IMG/VR virus record: IMGVR_UViG_2623620491_000007
Length of the DNA stretch: 4,934 nucleotides
Strand: one strand, 5' to 3'
Source of the DNA: a virus
Taxonomy: Duplodnaviria; Heunggongvirae; Uroviricota; Caudoviricetes
This document shows positions 737-4,106 of this stretch, piece by piece (position 1 is the first letter of the stretch; each line of letters opens with the position of its first letter). The notes below the pieces were generated by a model. The model had not been told where the DNA came from. It worked only from the letters and a program-made list of their open reading frames with translations, and searched no databases. Made by a program: the position numbers and the translations under genes.

Positions 737-771
737 TCCGCTTTGTGCCAGAAGCGGAAGTTGCTAAAATG
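737..771. repeat. Left copy of a palindrome-containing repeat: TCCGCTTT-N7-AAGCGGA, then 5 nt, then CTAAAATG
   Basis: TCCGCTT (737-743) is the reverse complement of AAGCGGA (752-758), giving a 7 bp stem with an 8 nt loop; CTAAAATG follows at 764-771. The same blocks recur at 2959-2988. No T-run on either strand, so not an intrinsic terminator. Confidence 0.5.
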
Positions 772-867
772 GTTTACCGTGTCCAAAGGAGTCAGGGGCA
801 ACAACGCGATATTGCTGACTGAGGTTTGGATCTAATCCTAGGACATGTCAGGAGCAATGCTAATCTA

Positions 868-896
868 TTCATTAAAGCAGAGTATATGCCTATAAT
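868..896 (+). promoter_or_regulatory. Candidate sigma70 promoter for the AT-rich cassette (-35 TTCATT 868-873, 17 bp spacer, -10 TATAAT 891-896)
   Basis: Perfect -10 hexamer TATAAT at 891-896 with a weak -35; it sits about 85 nt upstream of the SD and ATG of the first cassette gene. AT-rich context means other hexamers are possible; not tested. Confidence 0.3.
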
Positions 897-979
897 TTAG
901 AACCTTGCTATGGACATGAAAATGTGTAACATGCAATAGATCTCTACACACAGCAGGATTCCTACACCAAGGAGTGTTT

Positions 980-1381
980 ATGATTAACGAATCCAGTCCT
1001 TTCCCAGACAACGAAATTATATCCTTCTATGACTGTACTGGCATGCCCATTTTTTATCTACATAGTGATGGTGAAAGTTTTTATCACTATGACGGAACCC
1101 CACTAGCCTATTTATATAATAATGAATATATAGTTTCATATTCAGGTCAGTATTTAGGTTGGCTATATAATGGGAGTATTATAGATTATAAAAATGGGGC
1201 TTATGTTTTTTTTACAGCTTATAGTTCTGGTGGGCCATCGCGACCAAGCCGAAAGTTTCGACCAAGTCGATTATCAAGAAAGAGCAGACCTGCTAAATTA
1301 AGTCGTAATAGTCGACCGTCACGACCTTCAAGACAAACCAGATGGAGCGAGCGAAGCAACATGAGTTTTTTCAGTAGTTAA
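980..1381 (+). CDS. Hypothetical small protein (133 aa) with a Tyr/Gly-rich repeated N-terminal domain and a basic Ser/Arg/Pro-rich repetitive tail
   Basis: SD AAGGAG at 969-974 lies 5 nt before ATG 980 (the ORF-track start at 974 is a GTG inside the SD). N-terminal half shows repeated motifs (FYDCTG..IFYL, SFYHYDGTPLAYLY, EYIVSYSGQYLGWLY, IIDYKNGAYVFF); C-terminal tail is SRPSRKFRPSRLSRKSRPAKLSRNSRPSRPSRQTR. Very AT-rich. Confidence 0.65.
   Translation: MINESSPFPDNEIISFYDCTGMPIFYLHSDGESFYHYDGTPLAYLYNNEYIVSYSGQYLGWLYNGSIIDYKNGAYVFFTAYSSGGPSRPSRKFRPSRLSRKSRPAKLSRNSRPSRPSRQTRWSERSNMSFFSS
1236..1335 (+). repeat. Degenerate in-frame tandem repeats (about 18 bp units, e.g. CGACCAAG at 1241-1248 and 1259-1266) encoding the SRPSR-type peptide repeats
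   Basis: Direct reading: CGACCAAG recurs 18 bp apart, with further TCGACC/CGACC units at 1312-1326; this corresponds to the repeated S-R-P-S-R peptide units in the protein tail. Confidence 0.5.
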
Positions 1382-1459
1382 ATTCTCGTTGTATTAAAAA
1401 ATAGATTGATTTGAAAGTTAGCATATTTACCTACTATCAAATAATGAAAAGGGTTAAAG

Positions 1460-2875
1460 ATGAGTAATCTTCCTACTACAGTAAATACAACCGCAGTAAC
1501 CACTGGTGTTGATAATTTCACAACGTCATTAACTACTTACCTCACCGATTTGAATCTTCCGGCAAAGGGCGTTTTAGTCGGCAATGATCAGAGGTACACT
1601 GTAATTGATAACTTCCCAAAGGTTATTGGTGGTATTGACAGTGCAAGGCGTTCAGATTCGTTATATCTATCAAAGTTTATTGCAGCGTGCGGCGCTGGCC
1701 TTTTTGATGCAGCACTCAATTTTTTATGGAATGAAACAGTAGTAAATTTGAGATGGAAGGTTTCCCTTAACGATATAGACTATTTTTATGACAGTATTGT
1801 CACTGACACAAAAAGAAGAGATAAGCTTAAAACTGTAGATGATTTAGTTAATATAGAGGAGTGGGAGCTTGTTAAGGGTTGCCACTTAACGGGATTACTT
1901 TCGGATATAGGTTTTAAACATCTTGATTATATAAGAGATATGAGGAACTGGGCTAGTGCAGCACATCCTAACCAAAGTCAGCTAACAGGATTCATGCTCA
2001 TCTCATGGCTTGAAACCTGCATCAAAGAAGTGATTGCGAAAGAACCAGAACCTTCTGCATTACAAATAAAGAGAGTACTATCTAACATCAGAGGCGCTAA
2101 CTTAGAAGGCGATGACTTAGCCCATATAAAATCTGCGATGGAAAGCTTACCTCAAGATGTTGTTGATTCTTTCTTAAGAACTATATTTGGGATGTATACT
2201 AATGATAACGCGGCTGTACAGGTTAAGAATAATATAAAAGGAATTGCAAAAAAATGTTGGGATCTTTCGTCAGAAACTACGAAGTATAGTTGTGGTATAA
2301 GATATCAATCTTTTGCAGCTAACGGAGAGAGAGCTAGGAAAGATGCGGCTAATGAGTTTTTAACTACTGTATCTGGTCTTCCATATCTTCCATCAGACTC
2401 TTTGGCTGTTGAAATATCAATCAGAGTGACAAATTTATACCAGGCCCATTTTGGATGGAATAATTTCCATAATGAACCTGCTCATGCATCCTCTTTGGCA
2501 GCATATATCTCCTCTGCTGGGAATGTCCCTGACTCAGTTCGATTTGAATATGTTAAGACTATAGTTTTGTGTTATTTGGGCAACAGCTATGGAGTGTCTA
2601 ATATGGCCGTTTCTTACTATGAAGAAATGATTGGTAAGTTCGGCGAGGCAGAGTTAAAAGAGTTCGTAAAAATAATTTATGATAAAGACGTGATATCTAG
2701 GCTTGCAACTCAAACATGTGCTTCTCGATATAAACATATAGCATCCAATTTTGTTAGCAGAACTACCAATCAAATAACCTCGCAAGCTCTTAATGCGATC
2801 ATAGCATCGACTGCTCTCCAGTTACCGAACCTATCGAAAGCAACGGCCTACGATAAACTTATTCGCTCATACTAA
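1460..2875 (+). CDS. Hypothetical protein, 471 aa, no recognisable catalytic or NTP-binding motif; candidate effector of a phage-exclusion/defence cassette
   Basis: Long uninterrupted ORF in AT-rich DNA; SD-like AAAAGGG at 1447-1453 lies 6 nt before ATG 1460; stop TAA at 2873-2875 is followed by an intrinsic terminator. Thr-rich low-complexity N-terminus (residues about 5-27). One R-x6-H element (R162...H169, RNWASAAH, nt 1943-1966) is reminiscent of, but not diagnostic for, HEPN-type Rx4-6H motifs. No Walker A, no nucleotidyltransferase, RT, TIR or Sir2 signatures seen by eye. Confidence 0.8.
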   Translation: MSNLPTTVNTTAVTTGVDNFTTSLTTYLTDLNLPAKGVLVGNDQRYTVIDNFPKVIGGIDSARRSDSLYLSKFIAACGAGLFDAALNFLWNETVVNLRWKVSLNDIDYFYDSIVTDTKRRDKLKTVDDLVNIEEWELVKGCHLTGLLSDIGFKHLDYIRDMRNWASAAHPNQSQLTGFMLISWLETCIKEVIAKEPEPSALQIKRVLSNIRGANLEGDDLAHIKSAMESLPQDVVDSFLRTIFGMYTNDNAAVQVKNNIKGIAKKCWDLSSETTKYSCGIRYQSFAANGERARKDAANEFLTTVSGLPYLPSDSLAVEISIRVTNLYQAHFGWNNFHNEPAHASSLAAYISSAGNVPDSVRFEYVKTIVLCYLGNSYGVSNMAVSYYEEMIGKFGEAELKEFVKIIYDKDVISRLATQTCASRYKHIASNFVSRTTNQITSQALNAIIASTALQLPNLSKATAYDKLIRSY

Positions 2876-2911
2876 ATACTGTGAGGCAAAAACAGGCTTG
2901 GATCAGATAAC

Positions 2912-2938
2912 AGCCCTCTCTATTCGAGGGCTTTTTTG
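2912..2938 (+). terminator. Rho-independent terminator ending the AT-rich cassette
   Basis: Stem AGCCCTC (2912-2918), loop TCTATTC, stem GAGGGCT (2926-2932), then TTTTTTG; it lies 37 nt after the TAA of the 471-aa gene. Confidence 0.65.
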
Positions 2939-2958
2939 TAGGAATGCTTAATTGAATA

Positions 2959-2988
2959 TCCGCTTTTCGCTCAAAGCGGACTAAAATG
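2959..2988. repeat. Right copy of the palindrome-containing repeat: TCCGCTTT-N7-AAGCGGA directly followed by CTAAAATG
   Basis: TCCGCTTT (2959-2966) pairs with AAAGCGGA (2973-2980) around a 6 nt loop; CTAAAATG at 2981-2988. Blocks are identical to the left copy at 737-771 apart from the loop and a 5 nt insertion in the left copy. Confidence 0.5.
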
Positions 2989-3027: not shown

Positions 3028-3246
3028 GTGGTGACTGGTTGTTGTGTTCCATTTCTACAGAACAAAATCACAGAAACTATACCCAATAGTTGTATTGAAT
3101 CACTGACGAGACAGCCTCATATTTATCAGGACTGGTGTGCGTCTAATACAGGAGGTTGTCGTGCTGGTTCTCAAATGTGCGCTGGCTATTGCGGCTGTAA
3201 TGGCAATTTATTGTCTTGCTATTGTTCTTATGGATCGCCTTTTTGA
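3028..3246 (+). CDS. Possible small cysteine-rich protein (about 72 aa, 14 Cys); coding status uncertain
   Basis: ORF-track frame 3022-3246. AAGGAAG at 3015-3021 is too close to GTG 3022, so GTG 3028 or 3031 is the more plausible start. C-terminal CAGYCGCNGNLLSCYCSYGSPF is Cys-dense. No homolog recalled; it fills the gap between the cassette terminator and the hok promoter. Confidence 0.2.
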   Translation: MVTGCCVPFLQNKITETIPNSCIESLTRQPHIYQDWCASNTGGCRAGSQMCAGYCGCNGNLLSCYCSYGSPF

Positions 3247-3257
3247 CTGATTTCATA

Positions 3258-3286: not shown

Positions 3287-3405
3287 GCCTGCGGGTGCTT
3301 GGGGCTATCTGTCTCAGGCATGAACACCAAAAGGCAGATAGAGAAGAGCCCCAGTTAACATTACGCGTCCTGCAAGACGCTTAACATTAATCTGAGGCTC
3401 AATCT

Positions 3406-3618
3406 ATGAACGGCAAATCTAGGTTAGCCTCTTACGTGCCGAAAGGCAAGGAGAAGCAGGCTATGAAGCAGCAAAAGGCGATGTTAATCGCCCTGATCGT
3501 CATCTGTTTAACCGTCATAGTGACGGCGCTGGTAACGAGGAAAGACCTCTGCGAGGTACGAATCCGAACCGGCCAGACGGAGGTCGCTGTCTTCACAGCT
3601 TACGAATCTGAGGAGTAA
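3406..3618 (+). CDS. mok: Mok-like reading frame: in-frame N-terminal extension of hok whose translation enables hok translation (70 aa)
   Basis: ATG 3406 is preceded by GAGG at 3394-3397 (8 nt spacing) and runs in frame through hok to the same stop. This mirrors chromosomal mokC/hokC annotation, where both share a stop, as I recall it. Confidence 0.5.
   Translation: MNGKSRLASYVPKGKEKQAMKQQKAMLIALIVICLTVIVTALVTRKDLCEVRIRTGQTEVAVFTAYESEE
3463..3618 (+). CDS. hok: Hok/Gef-family type I toxin (small membrane-depolarising peptide), 51 aa
   Basis: Translation MKQQKAMLIALIVICLTVIVTALVTRKDLCEVRIRTGQTEVAVFTAYESEE matches the Hok/Gef/RelF family: hydrophobic transmembrane helix followed by the conserved TRKxLCE..R..G..EVAAF/VF..YE block. 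Closest to HokD/RelF and Gef from memory. SD AAGGAG at 3448-3453 lies 9 nt before ATG 3463; stop TAA 3616-3618. Confidence 0.85.
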   Translation: MKQQKAMLIALIVICLTVIVTALVTRKDLCEVRIRTGQTEVAVFTAYESEE

Positions 3619-3676
3619 GAGACCCGGCGGGGGAGAAATCCCTCGCCACCTCTGATGTGTCAGGCATTCTCAACGC

Positions 3677-3710
3677 ACCCGCATTTAACCCGTTTCGGCG
3701 GGTTTTTTGT
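3677..3710 (+). terminator. Rho-independent terminator of the hok transcript
   Basis: GC-rich hairpin (AACCCG 3687-3692, loop TTTCGG, CGGGTT 3699-3704; alternatively ACCCGC 3677-3682 with GCGGGT 3698-3703) running into TTTTTTGTT at 3703-3711. Confidence 0.55.
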
Positions 3711-3893
3711 TGCGCGCTGAATACGCAGGGGGAAAAATAACCATATATTTGATTATATACACAACAAAAAATAAAAGTCATTGTACCTGCACATTAAACA
3801 ATCCAATATACGGCGTGAAATAAATATTTTTCAGATTAATATTTTTGTCTCTATGTGGATATAACCGTTTGTACTTATAAACCTGGAGGCATC

Positions 3894-4106
3894 GTGGAAA
3901 AAATAAAGAAACTATTTAGTAGCAAATACGCAGTCATACGTCGTGATGACCTGTCAGTTATAGTCGAAATGGATTACTTCCCTGAAACCCCAAAATCAAT
4001 GATGTATCGTAATGGTCGAAAGGTAATTTTTTTACCGATGAGGGTAAGTGACATTATGGGAAATGATAAACTGCTGGATGAATTGCGAGTCAGAGCATCC
4101 TGTTAG
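3894..4106 (+). CDS. Hypothetical small phage protein (about 70 aa from GTG 3894)
   Basis: ORF-track frame 3855-4106. The best start is GTG 3894, 4 nt after GGAGG (3885-3889). It is preceded by an AT-rich, promoter-like intergenic region and ends 71 nt before the DUF1367-like gene. No motif recognised. Confidence 0.35.
   Translation: MEKIKKLFSSKYAVIRRDDLSVIVEMDYFPETPKSMMYRNGRKVIFLPMRVSDIMGNDKLLDELRVRASC

Follow-up and report, generated by a model that had tools for sequence, protein, structure and literature searches.

The window, i.e. the whole analysed stretch of 4,934 nucleotides, is a piece of an Escherichia coli prophage of the Rac-like lambdoid type. A small gene and a large gene lie on the same strand with a 79-nt gap between them, inside a module bracketed by two short palindromes (Table 1). 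The GC content of the module (about 745–2972) is 35–39%, against about 50% in the flanks. The small gene codes for a beta-flower protein with a long basic tail, and this tail is the main subject of the present analysis.

Table 1. Coordinates of the features found in the window
Feature	Position	Strand	Basis and details
Palindrome at the left edge of the cargo slot	738..758	+	CCGCTTTGTGCCAGAAGCGGA; pattern search
Two-gene low-GC module, 2.2 kb	745..2972	+	common to lambdoid and P2-like phage contexts
Shine-Dalgarno-like AAGGAG	969..974	+	5 bases before ATG 980; read from the sequence
Small gene, 133-aa 4-fold beta-flower protein (PF21784)	980..1381	+	Pfam, RefSeq name, dN/dS
Flower domain, residues 13–80, four Tyr/Gly-rich beta-hairpin repeats	1016..1219	+	AlphaFold2 and repeat register
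Fixed basic tail, residues 86–121 (36 aa), 12 triplets (small residue, R/K, P or other)	1235..1342	+	ladder, family alignment
C-terminal motif W122-S123-x-x-S126-x-x-x-F130-F131	1343..1372	+	conservation across ~110–130 aligned representatives
Large gene, 471-aa all-alpha protein, HEPN-like predicted RNase, large unannotated family	1460..2875	+	
Candidate HEPN catalytic motif R162-N-W-A-S-A-A-H169 (R-x6-H)	1943..1966	+	within invariant M-R-N-x5-H-P-N
Intrinsic-terminator-like hairpin and T-run, end of the two-gene unit	2912..2940	+	7-bp stem, 5 GC pairs, then TTTTTTGT; consensus scan
Palindrome at the right edge of the cargo slot	2960..2980	+	CCGCTTTTCGCTCAAAGCGGA; pattern search

A rare cassette in a variable prophage slot

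The E. coli strain LSN03-016011/A carried the cassette of the window with 99.4% identity. In this strain it was flanked by a DUF977 gene and by the hokD/DUF1367 region, and the prophage was integrated next to ttcA. With loci L012 and L040 the module showed 94.4% identity over 2,232 aligned columns. A P2-like phage contig bore a 94.4%-identical copy of the block, placed downstream of the tail genes. As the module is common to lambdoid and P2-like phage contexts, both genes travel as a single 2.2-kb unit. Among complete E. coli genomes, two of 5,426 contained this rare cassette, and none of the deposited phage genomes did. A distant blastn search of E. coli detected nothing beyond the same two cassette-bearing genomes.

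The cargo was bracketed by two copies of a 21-bp palindrome in direct orientation, reading CCGCTTT-N7-AAGCGGA followed by CTAAAATG, for which 0.00 matches were expected from 200 shuffles. Similarity to prophages with other cargo ended just past the left palindrome and resumed at the right one. For E. coli prophages with the unrelated cargoes FRG, RelA/SpoT, and QueH plus KwaB-like, similarity to the window broke off and restarted exactly at the palindromes, and in the P2-like context both junctions of the module (745 and 2972) fell inside a boundary palindrome. These elements may be recombination or terminator elements which delimit a cargo slot. An assignment as integron attC sites was rejected because the GTTRRRY core was missing, and no attC site was found near beta-flower genes by Rfam search.

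Between the DUF977 gene and hokD, other E. coli prophages carried KwaB-like, RelA/SpoT, FRG-domain, Sll1717 ATPase, QueH, or hydrolase genes. This slot is a variable cargo hotspot. Downstream of the cargo, a complete hok/sok-type type I toxin–antitoxin module was located at 3293–3618, with the Rfam sok model RF01794 at 3293–3468 (104 bits) and, extending to 3618, a Hok/Gef ORF (Pfam HOK_GEF, E = 3e-23). Between the right palindrome and sok, a short ORF (3161–3252) with a strong AGGAGG site ahead of it encoded the 29-residue hydrophobic peptide VLVLKCALAIAAVMAIYCLAIVLMDRLFD, which could be a small membrane peptide.

The small gene and its conserved basic tail

The small ORF started at ATG 980, a position equivalent to the start given by RefSeq, and ended with the stop codon at 1379–1381. 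Its product matched Pfam PF21784 with E = 7.8e-28 and 97.6 bits (cutoff 25), and RefSeq names it ‘4-fold beta flower protein’. The dN/dS value was about 0.2 against the 91%-identical homologue in L012 and 0.05–0.1 against a 75%-identical Pseudomonas homologue. When the flower and the tail were computed separately, dN/dS was low in both. The interval 980–1381 is thus a genuine gene under purifying selection, and with the Shine-Dalgarno-like AAGGAG, the Pfam match, and a dN/dS of about 0.05–0.2 the ORF proposed by the initial annotation is real.

When 1.84 billion representative proteins were searched exhaustively with the profile (E ≤ 1e-3), 404 family clusters at 50% identity were obtained. 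Most of them were 115–125 residues long, with an alignment that extended through the tail. Named members came from Proteobacteria, Desulfobacterota, Planctomycetota, Firmicutes, Chloroflexi, and one archaeal MAG. The small protein had no match in PADLOC, NCBIfam, or PHROGs; by tblastn it had no match in plasmids and a single partial match in phages, to a Rhizobium phage. As a full-length match above the curated cutoff with a four-hairpin, eight-strand fold, it differed in nothing essential from PF21784 and is a canonical member of this already catalogued family. From the viewpoint of annotation the gene is ordinary, i.e. already named, rare, and prophage cargo. Among the family representatives P0161, P0190, P0192, P0207, and P0209, some opened with a signal or lipoprotein-like sequence and some consisted of two flower–tail units in tandem. 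Judged by these N-termini, a part of the beta-flower family is probably exported.

Residues 13–80 (68 residues) contained 12 tyrosines and seven glycines and were arranged in four 16-residue repeats, IISFYDCTGMPIFYLH, ESFYHYDGTPLAYLYN, EYIVSYSGQYLGWLYN, and GSIIDYKNGAYVFFTA. AlphaFold2 placed eight strands in four beta-hairpins with pLDDT of 86–91, the strand pairs being 14–17/23–27, 33–36/41–46, 50–53/58–63, and 66–68/76–78. The four Tyr/Gly-rich quasi-repeats and the stacked beta-hairpin domain read from the sequence by the initial annotation, which had also suggested a structure prediction, therefore correspond to the 4-fold beta-flower of PF21784. By eye, D18-C-T-G21 and Q57-Y-L-G60 fitted the [DNEQ]xxG motif, which is semi-conserved at hairpin tips, and the remaining hairpin tips were D-G, S-G, or N-G turns (D30-G31, D38-G39, N64-G65, and N72-G73). 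The glycines G21, G39, G56, G60, G65, and G73 were near-invariant across the family. Residues 1–85 carried a net charge of −8.

The beta-flower fold came to light only through structure-prediction mining; the paper on it (Durairaj et al. 2023, Nature; PMC10584680) describes the flower and, for many of its members, a hydrophobic helix at the C-terminus. [quoted passage not shown] The Tubby domain is made of 12 strands plus one long helix at its centre, against eight short strands in the window protein, whose short W-S..F-F end follows a 36-residue linker.

After the flower, a Gly-Gly-Pro hinge (G84 conserved in 71%, G85 in 80%, and P86 in 84% of representatives) opened the basic tail. Between residues 88 and 121, arginine or lysine recurred with a step of three to give 12 consecutive positions; in 10,000 shuffled tails no such ladder exceeded eight. 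The tail was composed of four units of nine residues, P-x-[KR]-x-x-[RK]-x-x-[rk], starting at P86, P95, P104, and P113. The number of units equals the number of petals. Net charge over residues 86–121 was +14. Median charges of flower and tail in the family were −4 and +8, compared with −8 and +14 in the window protein. Among representatives that were at most 50% identical to one another, the median share of basic residues lying in one phase was 0.78, against 0.45 in shuffles, and 87 of 122 representatives had a share of at least 0.7, which was reached by 2.4% of the shuffles.

Conservation was evaluated position by position over 150 representatives aligned to the profile. Proline was kept in 65–88% at positions 89, 95, 104, 113, and 116 (the range is the same with 86 included), and a basic residue in 62–87% at positions 88, 91, 97, 100, 106, 109, and 115. 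At the C-terminal end, W122, S123, F130, and F131 were conserved in 98%, 90%, 80%, and 92%, respectively. The tail and the W-S..F-F end aligned to the PF21784 profile and were kept in about 110–146 aligned representatives. P86 and W122 stood exactly 36 residues apart in 111 of the 125 representatives (89%). The divergent beta-flower protein of locus L064 also had 12 triplets, and in the tandem two-flower proteins P0161 and P0209 each flower had its own tail and W-S..F-F end. The first position of the triplet was serine in the subfamily of the window and valine, alanine, or leucine elsewhere; the ‘SRPSR’ appearance of the tail results from this serine.

The basic repeat of the initial annotation stands with respect to charge, but the repetition is a pattern of three and nine residues in the protein and not an 18-bp DNA unit. 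Degenerate 18-bp tandem repeats had been placed at 1236–1335. Tandem Repeats Finder reported nothing in this region except a 9-bp unit in 2.4 copies (1313–1334), and a repeat scan found one 12-nt pair with 18-nt spacing (1241/1259). Codon usage was mixed, with three different codons for arginine, four for serine, and three for proline. The repeat scans thus ruled out an 18-bp tandem array. The suggestion that copy number varies between isolates was to be judged by an alignment of homologous loci; all 20 close homologues that could be evaluated had the same tail length. With no DNA array, mixed codons, and a constant tail length, a contingency-type variable repeat was also rejected.

The high positive charge might alternatively reflect a protamine- or histone-like disordered tail by which the protein coats or condenses DNA or RNA. 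This would fit the net charge of the 36 residues and the low AlphaFold2 confidence after residue 86 (pLDDT 36–64), which also agrees with the disorder that the initial annotation had allowed for. The arginines, however, are single and isolated at a strict period of three among position-specific conserved prolines, the length is fixed, and a conserved aromatic end follows, a combination unusual for simple charge-driven binders. Serine at triplet position 1 is confined to one subfamily. Moreover, the PF21784 match covers residues 15–131, corresponding to profile positions 2–116 of 116, so the tail lies inside the family model. We therefore regard a protamine- or histone-like disordered tail as improbable, although the ordered ladder itself might bind nucleic acid. 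Fixed length together with position-specific conservation means that the tail is a conserved element of the domain, neither protamine-like nor variable in copy number.

The large gene and its pairing with the small gene

The large protein belongs to a family of more than 1,722 clusters with no Pfam domain and corresponds to PHROG 27609, whose function is unannotated in PHROGs. AlphaFold2 gave an all-alpha model (mean pLDDT 80) with a long C-terminal alpha-solenoid. The R162...H169 motif did not vary among 33 family members, nor among 13 members reaching down to 29% identity. From this motif, which conforms to the R-x4-6-H pattern and is shared with HEPN abortive-infection and toxin proteins, the large protein is predicted to be a HEPN-like RNase. 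It differs from those proteins in having the long alpha-solenoid, no match in Pfam, NCBIfam, or PADLOC and hence none to a curated HEPN family, and no sequence relative among solved structures, as the family profile had no match among PDB sequences. Pfam scans of eight distant family members gave no significant match; one distant member showed a faint DUF4145 match (E = 0.13). The Foldseek search of the large protein against PDB gave nothing significant.

The two genes are adjacent as stated by the initial annotation. They are on the same strand, the consensus scan found no terminator-like site between them and one behind the large gene (2912–2932), and they were moved together in the 2.2-kb unit. 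That annotation had further suggested that the small protein is a sensor, regulator, or neutraliser partner, and conservation of the pair is where this proposal was not borne out. Upstream sequence was fetched for 79 large-family loci, 62 of which were non-redundant, and a beta-flower gene stood upstream of the large gene in five of the 62, namely four copies of the window-type module and L064. Elsewhere the upstream neighbours were helicase-like giants, ATPases, Hcp, or HTH proteins, or there was none. Conversely, 16 fetched beta-flower loci lacked a large-family gene. An 88%-identical beta-flower protein occurred in Pectobacterium polaris with no large-family gene nearby, and in at least four contigs the gene for an 85%-identical large protein followed an Hcp gene at a distance of 30 nt, with no beta-flower gene. 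In Pseudomonas aeruginosa the large gene stood alone beside an integrase (listed in 2,210 blocks of the collection), and in Vibrio parahaemolyticus it also occurred without a beta-flower gene. As each gene is also found alone elsewhere, the two appear from these gene neighbourhoods to be separable units and not an obligate pair, and with pairing this shallow a dedicated neutraliser role is unsupported.

In loci L129–L132 (gene at 4001–5416 in L129), L049, and L050, an Hcp gene (T6SS_HCP) lay 30–126 nt upstream of the large-family gene. The Hcp was nearly the same before 85%-identical and about 60%-identical large-family genes, which suggests that the large gene is swappable cargo behind orphan hcp genes. 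In such orphan Hcp–cargo pairs of T6SS islands, Hcp occupies the upstream position held here by the beta-flower protein. The beta-flower protein is unrelated to Hcp, and the module of the window lies in a prophage with no secretion genes nearby.

Small antitoxins commonly accompany HEPN toxins, as in HEPN-MNT systems, and the small gene precedes a HEPN-like gene; the small protein might therefore be considered an antitoxin or immunity protein against a toxic large protein. Such a role is very improbable, since the large gene has near-identical as well as distant homologues with no beta-flower gene, beta-flower genes mostly occur with no large gene, and what precedes the large gene differs greatly between loci. 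In its obligate form the antitoxin role was rejected on the basis of the unpaired large gene of P. aeruginosa and of the 85%- and 88%-identical singles.

Optional cooperation of the two genes is a better candidate, kept alive by L064. In this locus a gene for a divergent 122-residue beta-flower protein (3484–3852) precedes, at a distance of about 110 nt, a large-family gene with 58% identity. The L064 beta-flower protein is Trp-rich rather than Tyr-rich, has a near-pure (S-R-P)n tail, and its gene is located downstream of a Mrr-type endonuclease gene. In a two-component system the beta-flower would sense a signal or act as an adaptor and control the HEPN-like effector, whose alpha-solenoid might bind the arginine ladder. 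Transfer of one block between two phage types, a terminator after and not between the genes, the short gap, and the diverged pair of L064, in which the gene order and a 12-triplet SRP tail recur, all leave room for a functional link. The upstream slot in close relatives is taken by Hcp, another small beta-barrel protein, and the top Foldseek matches of the large protein were armadillo/importin structures with (KR)n or NLS peptides, although these matches were non-significant (E ≥ 0.06, TM about 0.2). Against this stand the two highly similar singles, the restriction of the beta-flower gene to the window-type module and L064 among the 62 loci, the 16 beta-flower loci lacking the large gene, and the fact that Cernunnos, a family member discussed below, works as a single gene. 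On balance we consider a two-component system unlikely, and we treat the small protein as a separable unit in what follows.

Probable anti-phage role and proposed working principle

Cernunnos is a V. cholerae integron cassette of PF21784 which confers phage protection as a single gene, and its homologues are reported mainly from Escherichia prophages (Darracq et al., bioRxiv 10.1101/2024.07.02.601686). A later, independent screen also recovered Cernunnos. The window protein resembles it in Pfam family, carriage on a mobile element, and Escherichia prophage setting, and differs in that Cernunnos is a single-gene cassette, while the window gene shares its module with the 471-residue gene. The link between the two runs through family membership and the literature, not through sequence comparison, and the 84-sequence profile search (58 clusters) contained no V. 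cholerae beta-flower member. PADLOC had no match for either protein of the window; its library predates Cernunnos.

Elsewhere, beta-flower genes adjoined PDC-S46, AbiTii (E = 1.5e-47), AbiV with a Mrr endonuclease, or an integron-like array with a ParE toxin–antitoxin pair. Because Cernunnos gives phage defence, the slot carries cargo, and the family has defence neighbours, a role as anti-phage cargo is favoured, and by analogy with Cernunnos this is most likely the function of the small protein. Taken as a whole, a canonical PF21784 gene with a fixed tail and a separable neighbour, acting as anti-phage cargo like Cernunnos, is the reading that we find rather probable. In Candidatus Scalindua the beta-flower gene directly followed a gene for a 726-residue ATPase matching PADLOC PDC-S46 (E = 4.6e-274), and this pair (L002 3737–6402, L003, L004, and L009) was kept in three contexts. 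In L122 and L123 (5001–10357) a beta-flower gene was located 18 nt upstream of genes for an AddB-like protein (PDDEXK_1, 872 residues) and an AddA-like protein (UvrD helicase).

The protein is built of three parts, all of which define the family: an acidic flower of four hairpins, a Gly-Gly-Pro hinge with a basic ‘ruler’ of 36 residues after it, and the W-S..S...F-F end. For this protein we suggest, with low certainty, a lasso-and-plug working principle. If the tail were extended and polyproline-II-like, with three residues per turn, all arginines would lie on one face. At about 3.1 Å per residue, the 36 residues would span about 110 Å, which is about one turn round a disc of 30–35 Å, so that one 9-residue unit could run along each acidic petal. 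The W-S..F-F end might then plug the hydrophobic centre of the flower, as is described for C-terminal helices of other beta-flowers. A polyanion or an acidic protein made by the phage could displace the tail and thereby switch the protein on. Given the low AlphaFold2 confidence in the tail, the lasso-and-plug principle is built purely from conservation, charge, and geometry.

A more far-reaching and decidedly speculative extension would take flower, arginine ruler, and aromatic plug as a portable switch, in which the four 9-residue tail units would normally rest on the four petals and the ladder, once freed by a phage product, would be read by a neighbouring effector. With equally little confidence, the effectors might be the HEPN-like alpha-solenoid protein here, PDC-S46 in Scalindua, and the AddAB-like nuclease elsewhere, with Hcp filling the same upstream slot in sister modules.

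The available sections of the paper on the fold (PMC10584680) do not describe a 36-residue basic ruler of period three, and this ladder architecture is apparently undescribed before. Typical beta-flower members carry such an Arg/Pro ruler in four units, followed by a conserved aromatic end, and a tail of seemingly low complexity can therefore be a precisely conserved element. One member of the family has been shown to block phages, and the ruler with its aromatic end provides a hypothesis, testable by mutation, for how beta-flower proteins may act.
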